54,253 nt of DNA from a virus (IMGVR_UViG_3300017589_000044:1-54253), one strand, 5' to 3'; numbered from the stretch's first letter, positions 8,271 to 47,587 are shown. The notes: generated from the letters alone by a model not told the origin. A program made the numbers and translations.

Positions 8271-11042
8271 TTGGCAAAGCAAAAATCATATCAGAAATTT
8301 ATTTACAAACTTCAAAGTAAAAGATTAAAAAAAGCAAAATGGAAACTTAATCTTCCGTTATCTGAAGCTATGAAGAATAAAAATGATATTGTTTCATTAA
8401 ACGATAGTCAGATACTTCGTTGGATTGATGAGTTAAATGGGAATACTGATTCTAATACTGTCGTTAAAAATATACAAAAACAAATTAAGATAGAAAAAAA
8501 GAAACCAAAAAGTCAAGAATCTCGGAATAATATTAAAAAATTGTATCAAGAGTTATATAATCTACAATATCAGAAAGATTATAATTGTTTGATTATGAAT
8601 TCCAATAAAGAATATGACAAAGCAAATGAAGGATATTCTATAAATGAAGTAATGTATCGTAGATTCATTGGTACTAATGGGGGTATAAAAAAATCTACGG
8701 TAGTATACGTCAATAACGAGAAATATGATGTTTTAAAAGAGAGAATGAATAATGGGCGTAATATGTTAAAAGAGATTGTTCCTGCAAAATTAGAAGCATA
8801 TCAAGCACTTATATGTAGTGGCTCTACTCCAGTAACACCGCCAAAAGGAATAATTGTTGTAAATGATTGCATTGTAAATTTTACAGATAATGTAATAAAA
8901 CTAGATGATTCAAAAATTGGTGAACCACAAATGGATATTATAGAAAACTATCCAATTGAATACATGGATTCAGATGGCTATGGTCTTATGACTCCAGAAT
9001 ATTCAAAAACATTAAACAAAGATTTATACGGAGAAGAATATGCAGATAAAACATTATCTGGCGTAAATACAAGATATGCATGGACAAAAGGTATGTTGTT
9101 TACATTTGATTACATAAAATTTGCAGAAGAAAAAGTAAACAAAAATTATATGATATTGGACGCATGGGGAGATTATCGTGATGTTAGAGAGTCACAAGTT
9201 ATATTAACAACGTCTATGCTGAAATTATGGGACTCATATAAGAACTGGGAAGATTATTATAATAATTGTGAAAAGAACCATTATCAATTTTCTGTGTCCA
9301 AAGCAACACCACATGAATTAGAGAATGTACGGAATGCAAATTATCAGTTTTTACAAAGTTATAAATTTACAGATGAAGAACTATATGCTCTTTGCAAGCC
9401 AACAATAGATGAAATAAATGATACGTTAGGTATGGATTATAGAAAAAGTATTGTTTTCTTAAAAGGAATGTATCTTGATGAAGATAATATTGACTTTATG
9501 GATAATGATTTCATAAAAGCATTGATGATTAACAAAAATATGATAGATGATCCGTTTGTATTAAGTAAGATTCATGGGATGATAAAGAAAAGAATCAATA
9601 TTGCTGCAAAGGGTTCTATTAAATTAAATGGGAATTTTGCAATTGTTTGTGGTGATCCATATTCTCTAGCTCAATCAATATTTGGATTAGAAATAACGGG
9701 ACTATTAAAAGAAGGACAGATTTATCATAAGTACTGGTCAGATAAAGGAGTAAAAGAAGTTTCCTGTTTTCGTGCGCCTATGACTTGTCACAATAATATA
9801 AGAAAGAGAAATGTCACAACAAATGATGAAATGGATAATTGGTATCAACATATAGAAACTGGTCTTATATTGAACTCTTGGGACACTACCTGTGATGCTC
9901 TCAATGGTATGGATAAAGATTCGGACACAGTATTTAGTACGGACAATGAAATAATCGTAAAAAACACACTTAACTCCCCTACTATTCAATGTATCCAAAG
10001 AAAAGCACCTAAGATAATTCCAACGGAAGAAGATTTGGTACAGGCAAATAAGTTGGCATTTGGAGATGAAATTGGTCAAACGACAAATAATGTTACTGGC
10101 GAAATTGAAGTACAAGCAGGATTTAAACCAGAAAGTGAAGAGTATCAAGTTTTAGAATATCGTATTATGTGTGGTCAATTGTATCAACAAAATGCAATTG
10201 ATAAATCAAAAGGAATTATTGCAAAATCAATGCCTAGAGAATGGTATGATAAGTCAGCTAATAAAATTTTACAAGACGATGACTCAGAAACTAGAAAACG
10301 AAAAGAATTTAATCTCCGTATTGTAGCAGACAAAAAGCCCTATTTCATGAAATATGTTTATCCAAAAACGATGTCAGAATATAATGATTATATTAAAAAC
10401 ACCAATAAGAAATGTGTAAGAGAATTCCAAATGACAATGAAAGAGTTATTAGAAAAGCCGAATAAAACGATTACAGAAAAAGACTTTGTTGATTATTATT
10501 ATAAATTAATGCCAGTAGGTATAAATCCATGTGTGATAAATAGGATTTGTTGGCTGTTTGAAGATTTATTTCAAGATTTTTTAAGAAAAAGAAATAACAA
10601 TATTGAATTTGATTATAGTGTTTTAAAATCAAATGTGGAATATAGCAGAAATGATTTTAAGAACATTAAAAATATTTATGAATCATACATAGATGAATTA
10701 CAGTTTTACCACCAGAAAATTAAAACGATTAAGATTGAAAAAGATGAAGTTGAGTTAGAGCGTCAACATATGGTAGATAAGTTTAAATCAAACTGTGAAA
10801 AGATATGTTCTAATGAAAATGAACTTTGTGATATTGTATTAGATATTTGTTATAAAACTAATAAATCAAAACAATTTGCATGGGACATATGCGGTGAAGT
10901 GATTATAAATAATTTACTATCAAAAAATAACAACACAATACATTATCCGAGAATGGTAAAAAGTAATGGAGAATTTGAATTTGGCGGATGTGAGTTTGTG
11001 ATGGACAGTAAGGAATATAGGAAGGATGAGAAATTATTATAA
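8271..11042 (+). CDS. yonO: YonO-like single-subunit DNA-dependent RNA polymerase (RdRP-related two-barrel family)
   Basis: DSDGYG, R..KG, FRAP and metal-binding ALNGMDKDSD motifs; AIDKSKG; 923 aa; lies upstream of the late cluster as in SPbeta. Confidence 0.9.
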   Translation: MAKQKSYQKFIYKLQSKRLKKAKWKLNLPLSEAMKNKNDIVSLNDSQILRWIDELNGNTDSNTVVKNIQKQIKIEKKKPKSQESRNNIKKLYQELYNLQYQKDYNCLIMNSNKEYDKANEGYSINEVMYRRFIGTNGGIKKSTVVYVNNEKYDVLKERMNNGRNMLKEIVPAKLEAYQALICSGSTPVTPPKGIIVVNDCIVNFTDNVIKLDDSKIGEPQMDIIENYPIEYMDSDGYGLMTPEYSKTLNKDLYGEEYADKTLSGVNTRYAWTKGMLFTFDYIKFAEEKVNKNYMILDAWGDYRDVRESQVILTTSMLKLWDSYKNWEDYYNNCEKNHYQFSVSKATPHELENVRNANYQFLQSYKFTDEELYALCKPTIDEINDTLGMDYRKSIVFLKGMYLDEDNIDFMDNDFIKALMINKNMIDDPFVLSKIHGMIKKRINIAAKGSIKLNGNFAIVCGDPYSLAQSIFGLEITGLLKEGQIYHKYWSDKGVKEVSCFRAPMTCHNNIRKRNVTTNDEMDNWYQHIETGLILNSWDTTCDALNGMDKDSDTVFSTDNEIIVKNTLNSPTIQCIQRKAPKIIPTEEDLVQANKLAFGDEIGQTTNNVTGEIEVQAGFKPESEEYQVLEYRIMCGQLYQQNAIDKSKGIIAKSMPREWYDKSANKILQDDDSETRKRKEFNLRIVADKKPYFMKYVYPKTMSEYNDYIKNTNKKCVREFQMTMKELLEKPNKTITEKDFVDYYYKLMPVGINPCVINRICWLFEDLFQDFLRKRNNNIEFDYSVLKSNVEYSRNDFKNIKNIYESYIDELQFYHQKIKTIKIEKDEVELERQHMVDKFKSNCEKICSNENELCDIVLDICYKTNKSKQFAWDICGEVIINNLLSKNNNTIHYPRMVKSNGEFEFGGCEFVMDSKEYRKDEKLL

Positions 11043-11815: not shown

Positions 11816-11938
11816 AATAACACTTCAAACCCTTGCTATGACTACGTTTGCGGACTTGCTAAAACAAACTGTAAAATTAGTATAAGGTAGAGTAATAAAC
11901 AAAATTATAATTTAGAAGTAGAAAATGGTTCTCTACAA

Positions 11939-12300
11939 ACTTATGAGGTCGGAACAGGCAGCCGACACACCATAGTGGTCTTTAAAGAGATGCAGATTGT
12001 CACCTGTCATAAGTACCTTAAATGATGGAAAATACCGCCCATCCTAAATTATTATCATATATGGTATTTGTAGTGTTACCTGTATATGATGCTTTAAATT
12101 TTCCTCGCTACTGGGGACACAAGCTGTCGAAGTAGCCAACACTGATTTTTTATTATACAGGATTGGGAGATGAACTAATATTTTAGTAGTGTTTAATCGC
12201 ACTGAGAAGATTATTTCTCGGATTTGAAGACGAGCCTGTATAGTAAAACTATCCATATGAAGGCACGGGTAATGCCCTACTCCAAATATTCAATATATGG
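11939..12300 (+). ncRNA. Cluster of multibranched structured RNA elements
   Basis: Closing stems ACTTATGA/TCATAAGT (11939-12014) and TATACAGG/CCTGTATA (12154-12242) with internal hairpins; no credible ORF. Confidence 0.45.
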
Positions 12301-12367: not shown

Positions 12368-12439
12368 GCACTTGTGGTCTAATGGCTATGATGACTGGCT
12401 TCCATCCAGTAGATAAGGGTTCAATTCCCTTTAGGTGCT
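12368..12439 (+). tRNA. tRNA-Gly(TCC), CCA not encoded
   Basis: Acceptor GCACTTG/TAGGTGC; anticodon arm ACTGG-CTTCCAT-CCAGT; T arm AAGGG-TTCAATT-CCCTT. Confidence 0.85.
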
Positions 12440-35847: not shown

Positions 35848-36054
35848 ATGTTTAGAACAAATCAATTGCGGAGAATAATGGGTGAACGGAAATTAAGTTT
35901 TAGACAATTAGCAAGAATGTCTGGAATTAGTTCAGGAGCTTTAAATCAAATAGAAAGGTGTGAAGAAGACCCAAAACAATCTACAATGATTGCAATTAGT
36001 AGAGCATTGAAACTTGACGTAACAGAAGTATTTAATTTGAACTGGCGAAAATAA
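35848..36054 (+). CDS. XRE-family HTH regulator
   Basis: LSFRQLARMSGISSGALNQIE; RBS AGGAG and ATG 35848. Confidence 0.85.
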   Translation: MFRTNQLRRIMGERKLSFRQLARMSGISSGALNQIERCEEDPKQSTMIAISRALKLDVTEVFNLNWRK

Positions 36055-36078
36055 AAGTGATTAGGGGAGATATTTGAT

Positions 36079-36273
36079 ATGTCAACAAAATGTGGGGTAA
36101 AAATTATAAAAGTGATAGGATATGTGGAAGGTATTATAGAAACAAGAATAATTGAAGAAGCAAATAGGTCTACTTATAATGAAGCAACACAGTTTATTGA
36201 GTCACACCATCATGATAATATTAGTTGGAAGATAATGCCATTAATATTTGAAAGAAGTGATTTTTCGCTATAA
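36079..36273 (+). CDS. Small hypothetical protein
   Basis: RBS AGGGGAG; terminator-like hairpin 36303-36333. Confidence 0.6.
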   Translation: MSTKCGVKIIKVIGYVEGIIETRIIEEANRSTYNEATQFIESHHHDNISWKIMPLIFERSDFSL

Positions 36274-36363
36274 CAGGTAAATACATAGCATCATTTAAAA
36301 CAGTCATTTTATCCTCGGATAAGGTGGCTTTTTCTATGCAAAAAATTAGAAAGGAGTTGGACA

Positions 36364-38085
36364 ATGGACATTTTTAGTATGCTGATGAAAGTTGGTTTTG
36401 ATAAATCAACAACGGATGCTGAATATAAGAAGTTAATAGTCGAGCTAAAAAAGAATAAATTTGATATAACACCAAGTATTGACTTTGCAAAATCAAAACA
36501 AGAAGCAAAAAAACAGGTTTCTGAAATTGCAAAAATATTTGAGAAAAAGTTAAACCTTGATCCGAAAGATGCCAATAGATATGCTAATCAGTATTATGGC
36601 GAATTATTAAAAGGCATTAAGTCTGTTGAAAAAGAACAAGTAAAATTAAATAGTCTTCAACAGCAAAAAATATCAGATGGTCAGAGTAAATACTATGGAA
36701 GAATAAAAGACAATCTAAAAGAAATATATAATTTAGAGAAGAAACTTCCATCTGCCAAAAAAGAAGAAACAGCAGAAATACGAGATCAGATTAAATTATT
36801 GGAAAAAAGAAATAGTAATAATTATGGAGCGATAGATAGAAAAGGATTAAAAGACAACTCTCTGCAATGGGAAATAAATAACACAAAAGTTCTATATGAA
36901 AGTAGATTAAAAGTAAATAATGCAAAAAATGTAGATACGTCTAATGTTTCAAATATAAAAAAAGAAACAAATGCCGTAAAAGAAAGAATTGCAGCAGAGA
37001 AAAAAGTTCAAACAGAAATACAAAAAAGAAACAGTTTGGAATTACAAAAAGGAAGAACGTCCAGTAATATTGATACATTTGTAAAGCAAAACTCTAAAAT
37101 GTCAAAAGAATCTGTTAATAATTTTAGAGAATTACAGAAAACAATCAATGGAGTTAATGCAAAAGGTCTTCAAGATGTAAACACTCAACTTTCTACTCTT
37201 AAAAACAGAGTAAAAGAAAATGGAGAGATGGGAAGAAACTTTTTCGGTGAACTGAAAAATAATGCTGGGAAAGTAGCGAATTGGCTCGGAGCAACTGGAA
37301 TTATTTTTGCTGGAATTAACGGAATCAGACAGGCTGTTACAGAGTTAAAAGAAGTCGATACAATCTTGACAGAAATATCTAAAACTTCTGATAGAACAGA
37401 ACAGTCCTTGAAAAATCTAGGTGCTAGTTCTGTTGGAGTTGCTAATAAATATGGTGCTACGATTAGCGGATATTTACAAGGTGTCCAAGAAATGTCTAGG
37501 GCTGGTTTTAGCGAGAGTCAAGCAGAAGGATTAGGAGAAGTATCATCTTTAGCACAATCGGCTGGTGATATGACATCAGAATTAGCAAATAAATATTTAA
37601 TTGCTACAAATTTTGCTTATGATTACAAAGGTTCTGTTGAAAAATTAAACGGAGTTTTAGATGCACAGAATCAAATTACAAATAGAAATGCTTTGAATAT
37701 GTCAGACCTTGCAGAAGCAACAAAGGTTTCTGCGTCACAAGCTGCTGACTCTGGAGTTGCAATAGACCAAATGACTGCATCTGTTGGTACAATGATGGCA
37801 GTAACCCAACAAGGTGGTGAAGTTGCTGGTCGTGCATTCAAAGGTATTTTAATGAATATTCAACAAGTCGCTGGAGAAACAGATGATGGTGATATTATTG
37901 ATGAAGAATCATTAAAAAAGGTAGAAGCAAGATTACATTCTGTTGGTGTTGAATCAGAGTACATGAAAGATGGAATAGCCACGCTGAGAGAACCAATGAC
38001 TGTATTGAAAGAATTAGCACAAGTATATAACTCTTTACCAGAGAATAGTGCTGACAAAGCTGGAATTATTGCTGACATTGGTGGC
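36364..38085 (+). CDS. Tape measure protein exon 1 (574 codons)
   Basis: RBS AAAGGAG; TP901-type TMP core (VDTILTEISK, EMSRAGF, GEVAGRAFKGIL); ends ADIGG at the intron 1 5' splice site. Confidence 0.9.
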
Positions 38086-38524
38086 AGAATTTGCCACGTT
38101 ATGCAGAAATGTATAACTAGAACATATTTAAATGCAGGTAATGCCTAAAGCCTTACACCACAATATAAAGGAAACTATTATATGAAGGTTTGAAAACGTA
38201 AGGATGTCACAATGGCTGTTCATGCAACGAAGTACCCTAACGTAATCAATTGATGAAATTGACAGTCAAGTCGAGGGTAAACGCTCAACGACTATTCCCA
38301 TGTAGGGATTTAGAATAAGAATAATGGTGCAAATCCAGAATATCTAAATCATAAGAAGTACGGCACAATCGCAAATGGTGTGGGTGAAATCCCCTTAAAC
38401 GGAAAAAGTATGCTCTTAACAGGTAAAGCTGAAGGTGAAGAAATAGTCTAAACATCACATGAAAGTGTGAGAAGTTGCTAATAAACAACTGGTTAGATGT
38501 TGCGAATCTAATTGAATATAATTG
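38086..38524 (+). ncRNA. Group I intron 1 in TMP (439 nt, ORF-less)
   Basis: P1 GTGGCA/TGCCAC; P2 with GAAA loop; P3 CATATTT/AAGTATG; R CTCAACGACTA 38284-38294; S GAAGAAATAGTC 38437-38448; P9 with GAAA loop; terminal G 38524; P10 ATTT/AAAT; splicing restores IGG|KYRGNQ. Confidence 0.9.
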
Positions 38525-38845
38525 AAATATCGAGGAAATCAACTTTCTGCATTATTGAGCAATTGGGATATGTACGAAAAAATGATGTCCGATTACCAAA
38601 ATTCAGAAGGTTCTGCATTAAATGAAGCATTAAAAACAGCGAATTCTTGGGAAGGTTTACTTAATCAGATTTCCAATAACTGGACTTCTTTTGTTGGAAG
38701 TTTTGTTACTGATGGATTGGCTACTGGTGCACTTAAAACAGTAAATGGATTAACAAAAGGAATAGATTCTCTTGTAAAAAGCCTAGGAGCATTACCAACA
38801 GTAGCTCTGGCTGCTTTCGGGTTTTTAGCTTTCAAGAACATTGGT
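38525..38845 (+). CDS. Tape measure protein exon 2 (107 codons)
   Basis: KYRGNQLSALLSNW...SEGSALNE...KNIG continues the TMP core; no RBS before TTG 38522. Confidence 0.88.
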
Positions 38846-39724
38846 AGGACAAATAGTTGTTCTCTATTCAAAAATAATATAATTGAATATGCCCTTCTTG
38901 CCTAAGAATAAATTCAAAGGTAGGATTGTTTCGTGCTAGTCACACGTTAATGTTCTATAAAATATACCGTAATTGAGATTTACTATGTCTCAGTGCTGGA
39001 ACGATAAATGGAATAAATAGTATTATATGGCTACAACGTAATCAGAAATGATAAGCGTGAATGCACTCTGAAAGGATACCAGTAATGGTAAGAAAACATA
39101 TAATAGTTCATAAGGCGAAAGCCTAAGTGAAATGTCACAAGACTAAACCCACTATCAGCAACGGACTCTTACTTTAGTAGGAAGTGTTCACAGACTAGAA
39201 ACGGTATCGAGTATATAGATAGTTTTATATGCTTGTAATGGATAGTCGAAACGTAGAGTAAACTACCCTCTTGACCGAGGTAAAATCAAAACAGTATTAC
39301 TAACTGTTCTATTTTTTATAGTACGTCAATGACGAAGAAATAGATTAATTTGTAGGTGTGTCACTACCTTAGGTTGGGCGAGTGTGACAAAATAATGGCT
39401 GGCTGTCATCCATCAACTACGGCAAAAAAATAGTAGAAAAAAGACATCTACGCATTGACATTTAAAAACAACAAAAATTAATTATCTAGTTCTAATTGAA
39501 CGTTGGTGAACTAAATTCACTTCTTCTATAAGAGCCATTAACTTGGCTATTATTTATATGCGTAAATATAGTACAAAATGATTTAAAAATTAAACTTCTC
39601 ATGTGTAAGTTTTTTTAAAAATGTAGAATATTATAAAAATTTATGTTAATTTTTCACAATTCGGCAAAAAACAACCATAAAAAGTGTTAAAATGGTAGCA
39701 AAAGACGTAGAGGAGTGATATAGT

Positions 39725-39907
39725 ATGAGTACAGAGGATTACAAAAAAATAGATCAGGGGGATGATAATATGGGAGCAGAAGCAATAACTAGGAATTTTG
39801 TATATGAAATGAAAGTTGATAAGAATTCAACGAAGAAAGAACCAACAGTAGGTAGAGATATAATCGAGGAAGCTAAAAAGGTTTTATTGAAGTATAAGGT
39901 GAAATAG
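39725..39907 (+). CDS. Small partner of the GNAT protein (putative antitoxin); intron cargo
   Basis: RBS GAGGAG (alternative start 39770); 1 nt upstream of the GNAT gene. Confidence 0.65.
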   Translation: MSTEDYKKIDQGDDNMGAEAITRNFVYEMKVDKNSTKKEPTVGRDIIEEAKKVLLKYKVK

Positions 39908-39908
39908 T

Positions 39909-40436
39909 ATGTCATTATTGATTCAAAAGCTAGATGTGAGTAACTATTGTTTTGTAAATAAATTTAAAGTTAATTCAGAAAGTTGTGAAAATCCAAAGCA
40001 CTATGAAGACTATTTGAAACAAAATGCAATAACTGATTTCAAGCTAGGTGTCGGAACAACTCATATCTTTATTGATGAAGATCAACAAAATATAATGGGA
40101 TATTTTACACTTAAATCTTCTGCTTTAGTGAAAAATATGGGAGAGGAACATAATTTTGGATATCCAGCTATTGAGATTGCAGAACTTGCAGTACACAAAG
40201 ATTATGAACGAAAAGGAATAGGAACGGATATGTTAGATTTCGTTTTTTCAAAAATTGATGACATAAAAGAAATTGTGGCAGTGCAATATGTATTGCTTTG
40301 TGCTGATCCTAAAGCTGAACAGTTTTATTCAAAATCAAAATTTAAATTTCAAAGAGTTAGAAATTTTGAACAGATACCAAGAGAACATTGGAATCAGCAG
40401 TGTGTACCTATGTTTGTAAAGTTAAAAGAAACATAA
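39909..40436 (+). CDS. GNAT acetyltransferase (AtaT/TacT-like putative toxin); intron cargo
   Basis: IMGYFTL, YPAIEIAELAVHKDYERKGIGTDML, AEQFYSK. Confidence 0.85.
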   Translation: MSLLIQKLDVSNYCFVNKFKVNSESCENPKHYEDYLKQNAITDFKLGVGTTHIFIDEDQQNIMGYFTLKSSALVKNMGEEHNFGYPAIEIAELAVHKDYERKGIGTDMLDFVFSKIDDIKEIVAVQYVLLCADPKAEQFYSKSKFKFQRVRNFEQIPREHWNQQCVPMFVKLKET

Positions 40437-40467
40437 AAAAGAACTATCTTAATTGATGGTTCTTTTT
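40436..40467. terminator. Bidirectional intrinsic terminator inside intron 2
   Basis: AAAAAGAACTATC-TTAATT-GATGGTTCTTTTT. Confidence 0.75.
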
Positions 40468-40529
40468 ATATGTTTCAATATAAGTTAATCCCCTACTTTA
40501 TTTATATAAATCAAAATAATAAAATATAA

Positions 40530-40654
40530 TTTTGGACAGAAATAAACACCCAAAACAAATGCTTGGATGCTTATCTCTAAAACTAAACAATTAAATTTTT
40601 GACAAATGGTCAGTTTGCCTTTTGAAAGTTTGTTTTCATATACGAAATCTACAT
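40530..40654 (-). ncRNA. Candidate minus-strand sRNA
   Basis: Promoter TTGCAT-16-TATACT with extended-10 TG (40688-40661); 16-bp hairpin whose G-U pairs form only on the minus strand (40538-40578). Confidence 0.45.
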
Positions 40655-40824
40655 AAATATAGTATATCACATATTTAATTAAATGCAAGTGTTTTCATGT
40701 TAAATTAATTACACTTTTATGCCTAAAGATACAATTTAACGAGAATGGGATTGACCGATCTCATTGCATATGAACTCATTTCTTTAGCACAAGAACACTT
40801 TTAATTACTATATTTGGTATTGAA

Positions 40825-40914
40825 TTATTTTATGTAGTTTGCGATTGCAAGGACAGCCTGAACAACTGTGCATACAATCACTACTACACTAGCGGGTTGT
40901 TGTAGTTTTTTCAT
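40825..40914 (-). CDS. 29-aa hydrophobic peptide, type I toxin-like (MKKLQQPASVVVIVCTVVQAVLAIANYIK); intron cargo
   Basis: RBS GAAAGTGAGG; own promoter TTGTAT-16-TACAAT with extended-10 TG; one predicted TM segment with basic ends. Confidence 0.65.
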   Translation of the reverse strand: MKKLQQPASVVVIVCTVVQAVLAIANYIK

Positions 40915-41014
40915 ATATGACCTCACTTTCCTGTATCGGCTCGTAAGTTTCATATACGTGTTTACCCATATACGCAATTACAATTGTATCACAATTCGAC
41001 ATTAATACAAGTCG

Positions 41015-41026
41015 GAACATTTGTTC
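41015..41026. promoter_or_regulatory. Firmicutes LexA (SOS) box GAAC-ATTT-GTTC
   Basis: Matches GAAC-N4-GTTC; lies between divergent promoters. Confidence 0.65.
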
Positions 41027-41084
41027 ATTTTTCGACAATATTTTTAATTGTAAATATTTTTTGGAATTATTTTCATATTCACTC

Positions 41085-41113
41085 TTGACATCGTAACTCC
41101 AAAGTAGTATTAT
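41085..41113 (+). promoter_or_regulatory. SigA promoter for the HTH-antirepressor operon
   Basis: TTGACA-17-TATTAT. Confidence 0.75.
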
Positions 41114-41140
41114 GGATATTGTAACAGGGAGGTATGAAAA

Positions 41141-41338
41141 ATGTCAGATGTGAGATTAACATTCGTAACAAAGGAATTGGCTCAAAAATTTGATATGACT
41201 TCTAATTATATTATACAAGTTGCAAAGTCTTTGAATTTAAGTGAATCAGAAATGAGAGAAGCTGGGAAAAGGACATACTTGTTTAGTGTAGAAGCAGTAG
41301 AAAAAATAGGAGCTAAATTGGAAACGAACAAAAGATAA
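41141..41338 (+). CDS. Small HTH DNA-binding protein; intron cargo
   Basis: RBS GGGAGG; TKELAQKFDMTSNYIIQVAK...AGKRTYLFSVEAVEKI. Confidence 0.75.
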   Translation: MSDVRLTFVTKELAQKFDMTSNYIIQVAKSLNLSESEMREAGKRTYLFSVEAVEKIGAKLETNKR

Positions 41339-41448
41339 AAGAGCAACCCATCTACTTTGCACGGTGTAGGATTGCTCATACATAAACTTACATCTTTATA
41401 TTATCATATTTCTAAAACTATATCAATGTATTTTTAGGAGGAAATAAT

Positions 41449-42201
41449 ATGAAAAAAGAAGAAATGAAAGTATTAGAAGTTGTAAAGGAAACAAAGATTT
41501 TAGGTAAAAATATTCAAATGTATGGAGATATTAGAAATCCTTTATTTGTTGCAAAAGATGTAGCAGAATGGATTGAACACAGTAATTCCCGTTCAATGCT
41601 GAAATCTATTGATGAAGATGAAAAGGAAGTAAACATTGTTTACACCCTTGGAGGAAATCAAGAACAGTGGTTTCTGACAGAAGATGGATTATACGAAGTG
41701 TGTATGTCTTCCCGTAAACCTATCGCTAAACAAATGAAAAAAGGAATTAAACTATACCTCAAACAAATTCGTTTAACTGGTGGTTATATCCCTGTTGTCG
41801 AAGAAGATGATGATGTGACTATATTGGCGAAAGGTATGAAAATACTTCAAAGAACAGTCGAAGAAAAAGATGCGATTATAAAATCACAACAACCAAAAGT
41901 AGATTCTTACAATCGGCTTGTAAATGCAAGCGGAACTATGGATATGAATACTGTTGCGAAAGAAGTCGGCATTGGTGAATATAAATTATTCGAATATCTT
42001 AGAAACAAAAAAGTTTTATTTTTGAATCCAGATGGAAATAATATTCCTTATGAGAGATTTAGAAAAGAAGGAAAATTTGAGGTATTTGAAAAATTATGTA
42101 GAGACGGAAGTTATCGGTCTGTTACTAGAGCAACCAGAAAAGGATTAACTTACATAGAAAAACTTTTACGAAAAGACAAAATTGTCGGTGGTGTTTTATG
42201 A
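41449..42201 (+). CDS. BRO-N plus KilAC antirepressor; intron cargo
   Basis: PLFVAKDVAEWIEHSN...FLTEDGLYEV..SRKPIAK...IRLTGGY; QPKVD...KLFEYLR...TRKG. Confidence 0.88.
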   Translation: MKKEEMKVLEVVKETKILGKNIQMYGDIRNPLFVAKDVAEWIEHSNSRSMLKSIDEDEKEVNIVYTLGGNQEQWFLTEDGLYEVCMSSRKPIAKQMKKGIKLYLKQIRLTGGYIPVVEEDDDVTILAKGMKILQRTVEEKDAIIKSQQPKVDSYNRLVNASGTMDMNTVAKEVGIGEYKLFEYLRNKKVLFLNPDGNNIPYERFRKEGKFEVFEKLCRDGSYRSVTRATRKGLTYIEKLLRKDKIVGGVL

Positions 42202-42431
42202 TGCACTTCCCTATTGCTACAAAATCATACTTGAAAGTTATCACAGTCAATGTAAGAGATTTTTCGCACATGGAAGAACATCATAGTCCAATTAATGAAA
42301 TTCGTAAAGTTAAGTCTTACATGAAAAAATCTAAAGATGAGTTTGAAATATGTGAATTATATATTATGCACCCAGAACTTTTAACAGCAGAAGATAAGAT
42401 TGCATTAGATTCTTATTTTATTAAATATTAA
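42198..42431 (+). CDS. Hypothetical protein; intron cargo
   Basis: Overlaps the antirepressor stop (ATGA coupling); terminator follows. Confidence 0.6.
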   Translation: MMHFPIATKSYLKVITVNVRDFSHMEEHHSPINEIRKVKSYMKKSKDEFEICELYIMHPELLTAEDKIALDSYFIKY

Positions 42432-42440
42432 CCAAAAATT

Positions 42441-42468
42441 AGAGAGTGGTTTTATATCACTCTCTTTT
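42441..42468 (+). terminator. Intrinsic terminator inside intron 2, between convergent genes
   Basis: AGAGAGTGGT-TTTAT-ATCACTCTCT-TTT. Confidence 0.7.
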
Positions 42469-42497
42469 CATTGTGCTAATTTAATTAAAACTGTATC

Positions 42498-42980
42498 TTA
42501 TCTTCTTGGTTTCCATTTGTGACCACAGCGACCACAGCGATTCATAGTCGCACCACTTCCAATAAATCCAGTCATAACACTAAAACCTTTTCGTCCTGTT
42601 ACAACTGTACTACTGCCACATTTAGGGCATTTTGGAGCAACAGAACTAGGATCATAATGTATTGGTGATTCAATAGCTTGATTATCCATTCCTATTATTG
42701 GAGATTCATAATAATGTTCTTTTGGTTCACATTTAACTATTCCAACATCTTTACACATAACTGTCTTATCCGTATCTTCATCAATTATTTGAACCCTAAT
42801 ATCATGGTCTACAAATGGTTGCATTATCAATTTTACTTCTTCTAATGTTAGATTGATTGCCATAGTGAATGGTGTAGAATGTCTAATATCTAAAGTTTGT
42901 TGTAAATTGTAACCTAACACTTCATCAAGATAAATTCCAGAATAAATACTATCTCCATTAATTAATTTTAATGAATACAA
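42498..42980 (-). CDS. Zn-ribbon protein with L7/L12-CTD-like N-terminus; antisense intron cargo
   Basis: CPKCGS...CGRCGHKW; RBS GGTGGAG; own promoter. Confidence 0.75.
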   Translation of the reverse strand: MYSLKLINGDSIYSGIYLDEVLGYNLQQTLDIRHSTPFTMAINLTLEEVKLIMQPFVDHDIRVQIIDEDTDKTVMCKDVGIVKCEPKEHYYESPIIGMDNQAIESPIHYDPSSVAPKCPKCGSSTVVTGRKGFSVMTGFIGSGATMNRCGRCGHKWKPRR

Positions 42981-43056
42981 GATGCTCCACCGCCTTTTCT
43001 TTTTAGTAGTTCTATATATACAATACTAACAAACATAAAATAATATTCCCAACAAT

Positions 43057-43085
43057 ATTATACAACAGTTTGATATTCAATGCAA
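43057..43085 (-). promoter_or_regulatory. Antisense SigA promoter straddling the intron 2 3' splice site
   Basis: TTGCAT (43085-43080, in exon 3)-17-TATAAT (43062-43057, in the intron). Confidence 0.6.
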
Positions 43086-46000
43086 GTAAGTTAGTTGCGT
43101 ATGGAACAGCTTTAAAATCAACGACGACCAGTGTAGCAGAATTAACGGCGTTAACAGAAGGATTAAATGTCCAACAATCTTTAAATGTATTGTCAACTCG
43201 TAATTTAACTAAAGCAAATATTGAAAAAATTCTAACAGACAACGGAATTGCTGCATCTGAGGCACAAAAAGCAGCAGCTACAATAACATCAACTACGGTA
43301 AATGCAGGTGCGACAGCAGCAACTACTGCTTATACAACGGCTTTATGGGCTAATATCAAAGCATTAGGTGTTTGGATGGTAACGAATCCCGTCGGATGGC
43401 TTATATTAGCTGGGACTGCTATTTATGGAGTAGCCAAAGCTACCCAAGCAGCTACTACTACATTTGCAGAACACCAAGAGAACGTTAATGGACTAAAAGA
43501 AAACTATGCTAAACTCAATAGTGAATTAGACGCTTTAAAAGGTAAGGATGATTTAACTGCTGGGGAAACTAAAAGATTAGATTATCTCGAAAGAAGACTA
43601 GCACTTGAAGAAAAGATTTTAAAAACTGCGAATAAAAAACTTGCTGAAAGTGAAATTTCTGGCAAAGGGGATATTACAAGTGATGGAATTGTCGGTGATT
43701 CACTTACCACAAAAGCAAAATTTCTCACAGTTGATACAGATACGTCAACTCAACTTAAATCACTTGAAGATGTTAGGAGTAAAATTCAAGAATTAGATTC
43801 AACATCTTCTAATTATGAATCAACTGTTGAAAGATTGACAAACCAAGAAGAAGATATCACTTTAAAATTAGAAGGTCAAAAAAATACTTTAGATGAATTG
43901 GAATTGAAATATTTAGATTATGCGAATAAAATTCAGTCGTATTTAGATGCTGGAGTTTTTGACGATGATGCTGAACAGAAAGAAAAAATGCAATCATTAG
44001 TTGATGAATATAATTCTACTGCTGATCAAATTGAGGCAAGAAAAATATCCATAGCAATAGAACTTGGTGATTCTAGTTATGTATTTGAAACAGATATATT
44101 TAAAAAAGCCGAAAAGGATTTGGCTGATTTAGCAAAACAAGGGAAATTAACTTCAGATACTTTAGCCGATAATAAATACAAAGAATTATCTGCTTTAATG
44201 GATTTATTCGGTATCTCACTTGAAGATGTTATCGATAAATTGAATGGTGTAACATCTGAATCTGAAAATGCTATGTCCCCTCTTACGTCTAGCGTTGAAG
44301 AATATGGAAAAGCAATAGATTCTCTCCCAACGAAATTAGGAGAACTTGAAGAAATTCAAGCAAAAGTAAATGACGGATATTCTTATAGTTACGATGAAAT
44401 TGAAAAACTAAAAGAAAAATACCCAGAATTACAAAGTGCCATATATAGGACTGCTGAAGGTTGGGCAATTGAAAAAGGTGCAGTAGATGAATTATATACG
44501 TCTACTGGAGATTTAGGTTCTCAGTATGTAAATGTTCAACAAGCAATGAGTGATGCTTTAAGTTCTGATATGGCTATCAGATTGAGTAATTTAGGCATAG
44601 AACTAGAAGGAATTAAAACAATTGCAGATGCTTATGCCGCTATTGCAAATGTAGGTAGGAATACTTTACAAAGAGCTGGGGCTAGTGTACCTAACCTCGT
44701 TACTGGTGGTATTATGGATAAGAGCATCCAAAATGCCATAGGTAAAGCAGTTGTTGGTAAAGAAGGAGTCGACTTTACAAATAATTATGCTGTCAACACT
44801 TCTAAATTTGATGAGTTGCAAAAAAAAATGAAAGACTTGAAAGCTGGAGGGTTTTCTGGTGGAAAGTCAAGTGGCTCTGGCGGTTCTAAAGGAAGTGGAG
44901 GATCTAAAGGTAGCGGTTCATCAAAAGAAATTGATGCTTATAAATCTGAATTAGAACAATTCAAAAAGTTAGAAGCTGAATTAGAAAAAGTACAATCAGA
45001 TATCTCTGTTAATGAAAAGAAATACAGTAATACAGAAGACGAAAAAGAGAAAATCGCCCTACTTCAACAAAGAATTTCGCTTACACAGAAAGAACAAGTT
45101 GCTCTTCATAATTTAAACACTGCTAGAGATAAAGAAATTTCTAAAAATGTCGCCCTTCTTAAACAAAAAGGTTTTAAAGTTGCTTACAATCCAGATTCAA
45201 ATGAACTTGAAATTAAGAATATGGAACAACTTAACAAATTAAAATCTGGTGACCAAGAGAAAACGAATGAGTTAATCAAAGAATATGAAGAACTCATTAA
45301 GACGACTGAATCTCTAAACGAAGCAAATCAAAAAGGTTCTGAATCATGGTGGGATAGTTCTTATAATTTGGAAAAATATAAAAAAGAAATTGAAGATGTT
45401 AGACGGACTATTTTTGACAAAGATATTAACGATATGGACTTCTCTACCCTATTCTTTGATGGTGTTTCTGGAAAAGAAAATGAGTTAATTTCTGCTTATG
45501 ATGGTATTATTGCGAAAATACAAAACGAAACAAAACGTGAGTATGCCACAGGATTGACAGATAAAGACGATTATATTCAAGAATTGATTAAGAAAGAAAA
45601 AGATTACGTAGACAAAGTAAAATCTGTAAGAAAAGGTATTTATGATGCAGAATTAGCTAGTAACGACCATCTGTTAGACTTGTTGAAATCAAGAGATAAC
45701 ACTAAAAATCGTCAAATTGATATTGTTGAACAGAAGATGAAAAATGCAATGAAACGTAGACAGTCTTTGATTGATGAAGATTATTCTGCTAATATTGACG
45801 AAATTCAATCTCTTGAAAAAGCATGGACTCAATACTACGATGACTTATTGAATACGCAAATTGAGTATTTAAACAAGCAGAAAGAAGATAAAGATGGTGC
45901 ATTATCCGCTGTTAATGATTTAATTGATGAAAAAATTAAGGCTTTGAATAAGGAAAAAGAATCTCTTCAAGCAGTAAATGAAGAACATGACAAAGCTTTT

Positions 46001-47587
46001 AAATTATCTCAATTGAAAGCTAATCTTGACAAGGCTAATTCTCAACAAACATCAAAAATTTATAGAAAAGGTCAAGGGTTTGTAGACGAGGTAAATTTAG
46101 ATGATATTGAAACCGCAAAGAATGAACTTCGTGATTTTGAATTTGAACAACAAATTGATGCAATCGACAAACAGATTGATGCTTGGGACAAATATAAAGA
46201 TAAATGGGCAGAAATTCCTACTGCATTTGAAAAGGAACAAAATAAACTCAAAGCTATTCAAGAACTTGGAGTAAATTGGGAAGATAAAATTTCTAATAAG
46301 CGTATTGATATTGTTGATACTTTCAAAGATAATTATATCGATTTACAAGAAGATATTCAAGATATATCAGATGAATTAGCGGAACACATGAGTAATGCTT
46401 ATCAATCAATGGTGGACACATTTGCGAAAATGGCTAAACTATATGAGGGTAATGGTTCTGATAAATTAAATGGTATGAATAATGGTGCGAAAACATTCTA
46501 CTCTACTAAAGATGGTTCTGCTCCTTCTGGTGCTGGAATTGGTGATAAAATACTTACCAACAATGGCACATATCAAATTGTAAATGCTAATACGAAAGGT
46601 GCTAATTACAACGAAAAAACGCAACTTTGGAGTATAAAGCTGGATAGTACAAAACGTACAATACAGGATTCTTTGAGAGGAACAGAAGATTTAACGGATA
46701 AAGTTATACGTGCATCAAGTACGATAGATGAAAATTCACAAGGTGTTAAAGGTAACTCATCATCTTTAGAATATTTGTCTGGTAATACAGATGAGAATAC
46801 TCTTTCTACTGAAGATAACACTTCAGCTGACCATTTGAACACTGAAGCATTATATAATTTAAAGTCGTCTATGGATAACTTTGAGTTTAATACTGGTGAA
46901 GCTGGAGCAATTGGTGGTGGAGGAATTGGTGGTAGCAGTAGCGACTACACACGTACATATTCATATACGTGGTCTGATGGAACGACAACTTCTTCGTCTA
47001 GTAGCAACTACAATACAGCAAGAGATGAAGCTGGGAAAAGCAGTAATACATCTTTAGTAACATCTTCTTCATCTAGCACAAGGAATAGTTCTAGTGGTGG
47101 TTCTAGTAGTAAAGGATCATCTATTGGTAGTTCCATTAAGAATACAGTTTCAAAAATTGGTAGTGCAATTAAAAACGCTTTTAGTAAACACGCAGATGGT
47201 GTAATTGGAATTAATTCACCAGAAAATTCTATTGTAGATGAGTTAGGCAAAGAATTGCGTATTGAACCAGACAGAGGTAGATTAGTTTCAATGTCTATGG
47301 GTTCTAGTGTTATTCCTGCTCAAATTTCAAAAACATTATGGAAATTCGGAGAAAACCCAACAAGCTCACTCTCTGACATGATTAGAAATAATCCAGATAT
47401 ATTGAACAGTATTCGACCTAATAATTTTACATCACCTAAACTTAATCTGAATTCATCTGCTCCAGAACAAAAAACTGAAATTAGTTATAACTTTGGAGAT
47501 TTGAATTTACCTCATGTAACTGATGCAAAATCGTTGAGTAGAGAATTACCATTATTGGTTAAACAAATGATAGAAAAAAGAAAATAA
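43073..47587 (+). CDS. Tape measure protein exon 3 (1504 aa)
   Basis: TNPVGWLILAG TM segment, long coiled coils, HADG..VDELGKE motif; no RBS before TTG 43070; junction reads KNIG|IFNASK. Confidence 0.9.
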   Translation: MFNASKLVAYGTALKSTTTSVAELTALTEGLNVQQSLNVLSTRNLTKANIEKILTDNGIAASEAQKAAATITSTTVNAGATAATTAYTTALWANIKALGVWMVTNPVGWLILAGTAIYGVAKATQAATTTFAEHQENVNGLKENYAKLNSELDALKGKDDLTAGETKRLDYLERRLALEEKILKTANKKLAESEISGKGDITSDGIVGDSLTTKAKFLTVDTDTSTQLKSLEDVRSKIQELDSTSSNYESTVERLTNQEEDITLKLEGQKNTLDELELKYLDYANKIQSYLDAGVFDDDAEQKEKMQSLVDEYNSTADQIEARKISIAIELGDSSYVFETDIFKKAEKDLADLAKQGKLTSDTLADNKYKELSALMDLFGISLEDVIDKLNGVTSESENAMSPLTSSVEEYGKAIDSLPTKLGELEEIQAKVNDGYSYSYDEIEKLKEKYPELQSAIYRTAEGWAIEKGAVDELYTSTGDLGSQYVNVQQAMSDALSSDMAIRLSNLGIELEGIKTIADAYAAIANVGRNTLQRAGASVPNLVTGGIMDKSIQNAIGKAVVGKEGVDFTNNYAVNTSKFDELQKKMKDLKAGGFSGGKSSGSGGSKGSGGSKGSGSSKEIDAYKSELEQFKKLEAELEKVQSDISVNEKKYSNTEDEKEKIALLQQRISLTQKEQVALHNLNTARDKEISKNVALLKQKGFKVAYNPDSNELEIKNMEQLNKLKSGDQEKTNELIKEYEELIKTTESLNEANQKGSESWWDSSYNLEKYKKEIEDVRRTIFDKDINDMDFSTLFFDGVSGKENELISAYDGIIAKIQNETKREYATGLTDKDDYIQELIKKEKDYVDKVKSVRKGIYDAELASNDHLLDLLKSRDNTKNRQIDIVEQKMKNAMKRRQSLIDEDYSANIDEIQSLEKAWTQYYDDLLNTQIEYLNKQKEDKDGALSAVNDLIDEKIKALNKEKESLQAVNEEHDKAFKLSQLKANLDKANSQQTSKIYRKGQGFVDEVNLDDIETAKNELRDFEFEQQIDAIDKQIDAWDKYKDKWAEIPTAFEKEQNKLKAIQELGVNWEDKISNKRIDIVDTFKDNYIDLQEDIQDISDELAEHMSNAYQSMVDTFAKMAKLYEGNGSDKLNGMNNGAKTFYSTKDGSAPSGAGIGDKILTNNGTYQIVNANTKGANYNEKTQLWSIKLDSTKRTIQDSLRGTEDLTDKVIRASSTIDENSQGVKGNSSSLEYLSGNTDENTLSTEDNTSADHLNTEALYNLKSSMDNFEFNTGEAGAIGGGGIGGSSSDYTRTYSYTWSDGTTTSSSSSNYNTARDEAGKSSNTSLVTSSSSSTRNSSSGGSSSKGSSIGSSIKNTVSKIGSAIKNAFSKHADGVIGINSPENSIVDELGKELRIEPDRGRLVSMSMGSSVIPAQISKTLWKFGENPTSSLSDMIRNNPDILNSIRPNNFTSPKLNLNSSAPEQKTEISYNFGDLNLPHVTDAKSLSRELPLLVKQMIEKRK

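Follow-up and report, generated by a model that had tools for sequence, protein, structure and literature searches.

A probable cargo-bearing group I intron in a viral tape measure gene, with same-codon relatives in Clostridia prophages

The stretch of DNA analysed here (the window) is a 54,253-nt fragment of the virus record IMGVR_UViG_3300017589_000044, about 33% complete by the tool's figure, in which the tape measure gene is made up of three open frames (36364-38148, 38522-38905 and 43070-47587). Exon 1 (36364-38085, plus strand) encodes a PhageMin_Tail domain (Pfam PF10145, E 3.9e-15) and is separated by a small insert, intron 1 (38086-38524), from exon 2 (38525-38845, plus strand), whose alignment with relatives (A1) ends at ...KNIG. 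The exon 2 frame continues into a second insert and reaches a stop 60 nt inside it (38903-38905). Exon 3 (43073-47587, plus strand) is an open frame of 1505 codons. The second insert (38846-43072, plus strand; 4227 nt) is the proposed intron 2, in which a ribozyme is followed by cargo genes and then by the 3' splice site.

The tape measure gene was compared at 16 viral loci and 27 genome loci. Exon 2 was 39-44% identical to the viral loci and 36-47% identical to the genome loci, and in 12 of the 16 viral loci the end of exon 1 aligned to ...GG with exon 2 directly after it. An uninterrupted homologue of 1335 codons, from a GenBank phage record, aligned to exons 1 and 2 in order. A megablast of 36000-44000 against phages returned zero matches, and a protein-level scan of viral contigs with the start of exon 3 found nothing.

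The original prediction had placed a group I core at the start of insert 2, and reading of the sequence by hand recovered P3, P4, P7, P8 and P9 at the same places. P3 pairs 38964-38970 with 39201-39207, P4 pairs 38994-38999 with 39155-39160, and P7 pairs 39191-39197 with 39243-39248; P8 and P9 occupy 39208-39235 and 39253-39266. The core as a whole (38930-39280, plus strand) comprises a P2 hairpin, P3, P4, P6, P7, P8, P9 and P9.1, together with an additional hairpin at 38974-38992 and a long P5 bearing four hairpins with GNRA loops. The guanosine-binding P7 is defined by a bulged base adjoining a G-C pair. In the window, bulged A39192 is followed by the pair G39193-C39247, and both features are retained in all five sequences of the alignment described next. 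An unconstrained free-energy fold recovered the local hairpins of the core (z -2.59).

Positions 38883-39212 are 68-74% identical to the sequence that follows the same codon in four prophages of Clostridia genomes (L033, L036, L043 and L045). We aligned these four with the window (alignment A2) and laid the hand-drawn structure of the window on the result. Standard pairs filled 97.7% of 345 cells, and 28 of 71 pairs had changed on both sides, among them two compensatory pairs in P3 and three in P7; none of 500 shuffles reached these values. When the partners were slid by one to three columns as a control, 32-42% of cells paired and 2-7 pairs had changed on both sides, a comparison in which drawing the structure from the window's own sequence biases the count of paired cells and leaves the compensatory changes unbiased. 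These results show that structural selection acts on the ribozyme. A segment of the core (39031-39063) is also 91% identical to positions 2386-2418 of phage Twort, which lie between the P4 strands of nrdE intron 2, just upstream of I-TwoI, and comparable matches of 33-52 nt occur in 53 phage records. According to Landthaler et al. in 2002, the Twort nrdE intron reportedly self-splices. The P7 region, searched for as exact motifs in viral contigs, gave no match. From the similarity to the annotated Twort intron and the covariation among homologous cores at the same codon, we conclude that the core of insert 2 is a putative functional group I ribozyme.

Most related tape measure genes are either interrupted at or near this codon or continuous across it. 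Reading stops within a few codons of the window's ...KNIG in 15 of the 16 viral loci, the remaining locus (L010) reading through; the 27 genome loci comprise 14 that read through, 12 with a stop at or close to the site, and one (L021) whose stop comes about 25 codons later. L021 belongs to a contig titled as a Bacteroides fragilis metagenome-assembled genome, and its tape measure gene matches in type those of the Lachnospiraceae and other Clostridia loci; this oddity could reflect a binning error or a different insert site. Beyond the stop, the next long frame begins 1 to 7 kb downstream. The 15 uninterrupted homologues each encode one continuous protein across the site, and they have G-I there; the same two residues stand at the junctions predicted for the window, L004, L033 and L042. 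These comparisons show that the site is an intron site.

The original prediction had proposed checking homologous loci for the same intron with different cargo, and inserts of 977, 1077, 1314, 2188, 3589, 4227, 5574, 5674, 5766, 6086 and 6913 nt were found at this codon, the longest (6.9 kb) being that of L008. The group I cores that open them fall, by eye, into at least three unrelated sequence types (window/L033, L005/L014 and L042/L011). Where exon 3 could be reached to its end, its frame was intact over approximately 1100-1900 codons; in L011-L013, no exon 3 was found within 10 kb past the 5' site.

The guide scan evaluated all in-frame U...G site pairs with contiguous P1 and P10 helices, allowed G-U pairs, and was repeated with the start of exon 3 shuffled 300 times. 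Guide models (P1+P10 pairs) were obtained for L014 (7+11; insert 2188 nt), L005 (6+6; 6086 nt), L006 (6+6; 5574 nt), L034 (6+6; 5674 nt), L004 (6+6; 3589 nt) and L042 (6+10, tied with another model; 1314 nt). The L004 guide is the same as that of the window. In L016 a fit of 11 pairs, made by eye, needs a one-base offset; the strict scan gave no model there. The splice sites of L033 (insert 1077 nt) were placed from its homology to L042, and protein similarity between the two exons 3 starts exactly at the first residue past the predicted 3' sites. Between L005 and L014 one P1 pair has changed on both sides, from A-U to G-C. Guides vary by lineage, each matching its own distal, in-frame exon 3.

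In the window, the internal guide lies at 38882-38893 (plus strand). Its P10 half (38882-38890) is the exact reverse complement of the first 9 nt of exon 3 (43073-43081), G38891 stands opposite U38845 in the U-G wobble, and 38892-38893 pair with G38843-G38844; a further pairing of 38895-38900 with 38833-38838 is possible. The guide columns are invariant in A2, and the guide resembles those of L004, L038 and L042. At the other end of the insert, GTTT (43068-43071, plus strand) can pair with AAAC (39249-39252) as a candidate P9.0, and is followed by the terminal G43072, as the original prediction had read it. A terminal G is present at the 3' site in all nine solved loci, though the scan itself required a G. 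Joining exon 2 to exon 3 at these positions is in frame. The pairings of the predicted guide are thus present; how they stand against chance is set out below.

Exon 3 had also been predicted to lack a ribosome site, and we found no in-frame start codon with a Shine-Dalgarno (SD)-like motif near 43073. The same held in all nine complete loci when ATG, GTG and TTG were considered from -60 to +120 of the 3' site. Synonymous changes in exon 3 exceeded nonsynonymous changes (25:7 against L048 and 18:12 against L049), and the last 92 nt of insert 2 are conserved in L048 (87/92 identical) and likewise in L049. By these counts purifying selection acts on exon 3 in the lineage of the window; exon 3 also lacks a start signal.

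Several observations weigh against the interpretation of 38846-43072 as a single spliced intron. The first concerns the guide, since the window's model (12 pairs) ranks third in its own scan. Two other in-frame models score equal or higher, and the top score of 13 was reached by 61 of 300 shuffles, so the guide is not significant alone. Among six loci, L014 was the sole individually significant one in this crude scan (0/300), the counts being 35 for L005, 46 for L006, 173 for L004 and 299 for L016. The window's own pairings are weak taken alone, and the placement of the 3' site at 43072 rests on the relatives, with parallel guide models in L014, L005, L042 and L004 as support. The P1 helix at the cleavage site has just 3 bp, and the exon 2 frame passes through the guide before its stop. 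A longer overlap is seen in L042, where 83 codons of the intron (10322-10570) are read in the frame of exon 2 before a stop, across the guide and part of the core; if translation closely trails transcription, this frame should hinder folding of the core. In four of the nine complete loci the last three bases of the intron form an in-frame TTG or ATG.

The second group of adverse observations concerns the distance to be bridged. The path from the ribozyme to the 3' site contains two plus-strand terminator-like hairpins (40436-40467 and 42441-42465), together with an internal promoter-like site and the antisense gene. No closing helix joining the region past P9.1 to the last 92 nt rose above shuffles; this and the other tests of pairing between intron start and end were equalled by 253, 110, 269 and 149 of 300 shuffles. 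No RNA run is listed as containing the stretch.

Finally, the Rfam group I model RF00028 did not match the core, although the same scan detects intron 1. The original prediction had proposed this search as a check, and it failed on the whole window, on 8 kb and on 601 nt, the best signal at the core being 5.5 bits (39242-39266). When the model was applied to seven related loci and eight records, its matches were limited to homologues of intron 1 and to other introns. As a control, the Twort nrdE record, whose coding sequence is joined from three pieces and so contains two introns, gave zero matches at E<=1. A 2025 study likewise states that RF00028 may miss phage introns (PMC11878797). For both reasons we do not take the miss as absence of a core.

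The region between the ribozyme and the 3' splice site contains genes on both strands. About 430 nt without a convincing open reading frame (ORF) separate P9.1 from the first cargo gene (39290-39720). A 60-aa ORF with an SD-like site (39725-39907, plus strand) then abuts a GNAT acetyltransferase gene (39909-40436, plus strand; PF13508, PF13673, PF00583; phrog_1758, E 5.5e-28), which is followed by the first terminator-like hairpin (40436-40467). Downstream are a 29-aa hydrophobic peptide ORF with an SD-like site (40825-40914, minus strand), a GAAC-N4-GTTC palindrome (41014-41027), a promoter-like site with 11/12 matches (41085-41113, plus strand), and a 65-aa ORF (41141-41338, plus strand). 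A Bro-N/KilAC (anti-repressor-like) gene (41449-42201, plus strand; PF02498, PF03374; phrog_130, E 1.7e-46) comes next; it has 68-72% DNA identity to the Bro genes in the inserts of L005-L008 and L034. A 77-aa ORF (42198-42431, plus strand) without a family match precedes the second terminator-like hairpin (42441-42465). The last gene, of 160 aa, is an antisense zinc-ribbon gene (42498-42980, minus strand) with weak zinc-ribbon Pfam matches, and it adjoins the 3' splice site at a distance of about 90 nt.

This inventory upheld the predicted GNAT, Bro-N/KilAC and 77-aa ORFs. The 65-aa ORF called a helix-turn-helix protein and the 60-aa ORF called a partner of the GNAT protein matched no family in Pfam, PHROGs, NCBIfam or PADLOC. 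With respect to an antitoxin beside the GNAT gene, the abutting 60-aa ORF had no match and PADLOC was silent on both ORFs. The predicted TM peptide was not confirmed as read, the hydrophobic peptide ORF with an SD-like site being on the minus strand. The LexA box was not confirmed: the palindrome at 41014-41027 has one mismatch and the window contains 4 such sites against 3.7 expected. The peptide ORF lies downstream of the palindrome, and together they look like an SOS-controlled small membrane peptide, a function and a mode of control that we propose from their sequences. No LAGLIDADG, GIY-YIG, HNH, His-Cys or PD-(D/E)xK endonuclease family was detected in the window's 7-8 cargo ORFs (Pfam, PHROG, NCBIfam), nor was any transposase, integrase or recombinase domain found in the cargo, the weak zinc-ribbon matches lying below cut-off.

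The cargo differs in the relatives. The L005 insert encodes a ToxN/AbiQ-like protein, DUF6173, a zinc-ribbon ORF and Bro/KilAC, and the L008 insert encodes DUF3800, a weak DUF4145 match and Bro/KilAC. Past the stop in L011, where exon 3 was not found, are an NsnA-like GmrSD_N protein and a PDC-S60-like phosphoesterase. ToxI-like tandem repeats were found neither beside the ToxN/AbiQ-like gene of L005 nor in the window's insert. Near-identical introns of the L005 type come in five lengths. From the zinc-ribbon gene onward L048 and the window share 94% identity, and upstream of it they are unrelated; a contig of sequencing run X2 skips 39568-41060, so that the GNAT module is absent. These comparisons show that the cargo varies, even between near-identical relatives. 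The X2 contig keeps 39424-39567, and the core before this segment is replaced by 634 other letters.

An antisense zinc-ribbon gene is present in at least seven of the nine solved insert types, and in four it adjoins the 3' end. A C-terminal CPxC...CxxC motif is common to the antisense ORFs of the window, L004, L005, L014, L033 and L042. The short introns of L033 and L042 have one convincing ORF each, which encodes an antisense 118-aa double zinc-ribbon protein (L033 10362-10718 and L042 11164-11520, minus strand). The ORF family comprises 128 clusters, none usefully named, and a profile search of the PDB with the zinc-ribbon ORF gave no significant relative. A motif of CCACAA followed by A/T and G is repeated in up to three copies within the final 100 nt upstream of the 3' splice site (L042 11540-11635; L035 1800-1902; L033 10770-10797); it could bind a protein or belong to the promoter of the antisense gene.

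Taken together, we consider it moderately probable that 38846-43072 is one cargo-bearing group I intron in the tape measure gene, the best-supported of the readings considered. The predicted cargo island inside an intron is supported by inserts at the same codon that have their own guides and differing cargo; splicing over the cargo and the function given to the long P10 are inferred. In the layout we propose, the first ~440 nt would hold the whole ribozyme, from P1 to P9.1, and behind P9.1 would lie ~3.7 kb of independently expressed accessory genes, ending in the antisense zinc-ribbon gene. During late transcription the ribozyme would fold first, and the guide (38882-38893) would grip the end of exon 2 through the U38845-G38891 wobble. 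The unusually long P10 of 9 bp and the AAAC/GTTT pairing (P9.0) would then select G43072 several kb downstream, and in-frame joining of exons 2 and 3 would yield a tape measure protein of roughly 2180 residues. With its own promoter-like and SD-like sites and terminator-like hairpins, the cargo probably works like prophage morons, and its exchange probably proceeds by recombination between two conserved parts, the ribozyme and the 3' end.

Two alternatives retain some weight because of the terminators, the internal promoter-like site, the antisense transcription, the lack of a closing helix and the translated guide. In the first, splicing occurs in trans: a 5' RNA consisting of exons 1-2 and the full ribozyme is united by P10 and P9.0 with a separate RNA that carries the insert end and exon 3, and that arises from an internal promoter or after termination. 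An entire ribozyme upstream of cargo that no closing helix spans, the terminator-like hairpins and strong promoter-like site within the insert, and a P10 of 9 bp in the window and up to 10-11 in L042 and L014 would all suit such a reaction. However, no promoter-like site above the shuffle background could be assigned to exon 3 (31 sites in the region against 27.4 expected), and the short relatives (977-1314 nt) share the layout yet need no such mechanism. We know of no trans splicing by a bacterial or phage group I intron, although we made no search for one, and we regard this explanation as unlikely.

In the second alternative, which we judge improbable, the gene encodes two separately translated tape measure proteins. 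The ribozyme would be a relic, or would cleave the mRNA at the 5' site, and an ordinary moron island would lie between the two coding sequences. The stop 60 nt into the insert, the TTG or ATG at the very end of four of nine inserts, and the cargo's own promoter-like and terminator-like signals would fit this arrangement. Against it, every candidate start in the nine loci lacks an SD-like motif, compensatory change maintains the ribozyme helices, the guide columns are invariant and match exon 3, and 15 homologues encode one continuous protein over the site.

It is very unlikely that the phage is defective, with a tape measure gene broken by foreign DNA beside an older small intron. The record is indeed a fragment, about one third complete, and we know of none of the loci as giving plaques; but at least nine different complete inserts share one layout, the exon 3 frames of ~1100-1900 codons are intact, and the window's lineage shows both purifying selection on exon 3 and conservation of the insert's last 92 nt. 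Other genes are known to contain intervening DNA elements, but excision of the island from DNA before late expression, whether site-specific or transpositional, is scarcely credible here: we found no support for it, the window cargo has no recombinase, integrase or transposase domain, the two insert borders have no direct repeats, and no contig of four DNA runs joins 38845 to 43073. In some runs parts of the insert had no coverage, from which we conclude nothing.

A single cargo-bearing intron would share features with several known systems. Prophage morons and defence hotspots are small operons with their own promoters and terminators, which vary among close relatives and include Abi, toxin-antitoxin (TA) and restriction-like genes. 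They lie between genes, whereas the present island interrupts an essential structural gene within its coding sequence. A fungal mitochondrial group I intron houses a non-endonuclease gene, the ribosomal protein gene rps3; this is one fixed host gene, located in an rRNA intron of an organelle, in contrast to a variable multi-gene phage island. Twort nrdE intron 2 with I-TwoI (GenBank AF485080) resembles insert 2 in its P4 strands, in the P5 hairpin (the 33 nt at 91% identity) and in having an ORF in a peripheral part of the intron. It differs in that a single sense-strand HNH gene sits in P6, whereas the ORFs of the window lie past P9.1, one conserved ORF is antisense, and no endonuclease family was detected. 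A 2025 database reports a single fungal intron with as many as five endonuclease genes (PMC11835236).

Closer precedents narrow what can be called novel. Tape measure genes of Bacillus cereus-group prophages contain group I introns at three sites, TMP-IVS1, 2 and 3, according to the available text of Tourasse and Kolsto 2008 (PMC2504315). As here, that text describes a prophage tape measure gene that holds several group I introns, cores that are unrelated to each other and fitted to one site by the same P1/P10 guide, and many introns without a complete homing endonuclease gene. Accessory genes are not described in the same text, unlike the 4.2 kb (window) to 6.9 kb (L008) with genes on both strands reported here. 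In IStrons an IS element sits close to the 3' end of the group I intron, and CdISt1 of Clostridioides difficile likewise has a 5' group I ribozyme with foreign genes near the intron 3' end (PMC3984707); its cargo is an IS605-family element with transposase genes, whereas the window cargo consists of variable accessory and defence-like genes. The novelty claimed by the original prediction must therefore be restricted to the type of cargo, as tape-measure group I introns and IStron 3'-end cargo are already in print. In a search that did not extend to subscription journals and supplements, we found no published phage group I intron whose cargo varies, spans several genes and is of a non-endonuclease kind. 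It is this variable, multi-gene, non-endonuclease cargo that is new.

If the insert is spliced, phage group I introns can carry more than endonucleases and transposases and would shelter fast-changing accessory islands inside essential genes, adding a hotspot of a new type for defence genes and morons. This would explain many of the 'split' tape measure genes in Lachnospiraceae and other Clostridia prophages. It also raises the question of how a ribozyme reaches a 3' splice site 4-7 kb away, past terminators and antisense transcription, with translation trailing transcription. As the standard Rfam model misses this intron type, surveys based on that model undercount such elements. Extending the argument to the whole family, we consider it an evenly balanced proposition that the tape-measure introns of Clostridia prophages are a gene-exchange hotspot. 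A ribozyme with a long guide would keep up to ~6.9 kb of swappable defence, TA-like and regulatory genes, antisense genes included, in an essential late gene; splicing would bridge their promoters and terminators, with a second step possibly between two RNAs, and the antisense zinc-ribbon gene may be a maintenance or mobility factor of an undescribed type.

Intron 1 (38086-38524, plus strand) is a small, ORF-less group I intron. RF00028 matched it at 38075-38471 with 37.2 bits (E 1.3e-9), under the 50-bit cut-off, and a DNA contig of sequencing run X1 is without it. Judged from this intron-less contig, its 5' site follows C38085, which pairs with G38093 instead of forming the usual U-G wobble. 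In the four viral loci in which exon 1 is not continuous with exon 2 (L006-L009), a 2.04-kb insert is present that has 73% identity to intron 1 over 436 nt, and thus is a homologous intron at the same site; it contains a 434-aa ORF located about 45 nt upstream of the insert's 3' end. No Pfam family was found for this ORF (L006) or for a 381-aa ORF in L004.

A skipping-rope RNA (RF02924, 58.6 bits) was seen beside a tRNA gene in the window (11938-12015 and 12368-12439). The same RNA occurs in the tape-measure inserts of L005 (13611-13691) and L006 (13353-13433), with 74-76 bits. Exon 1 of related tape measure genes contains further inserts at two other sites, examples of inserts in these genes being L006 8633-9937, L004 8276-9421 and L009 7278-7750; RF00028 matches the L009 insert at 31.5 bits.

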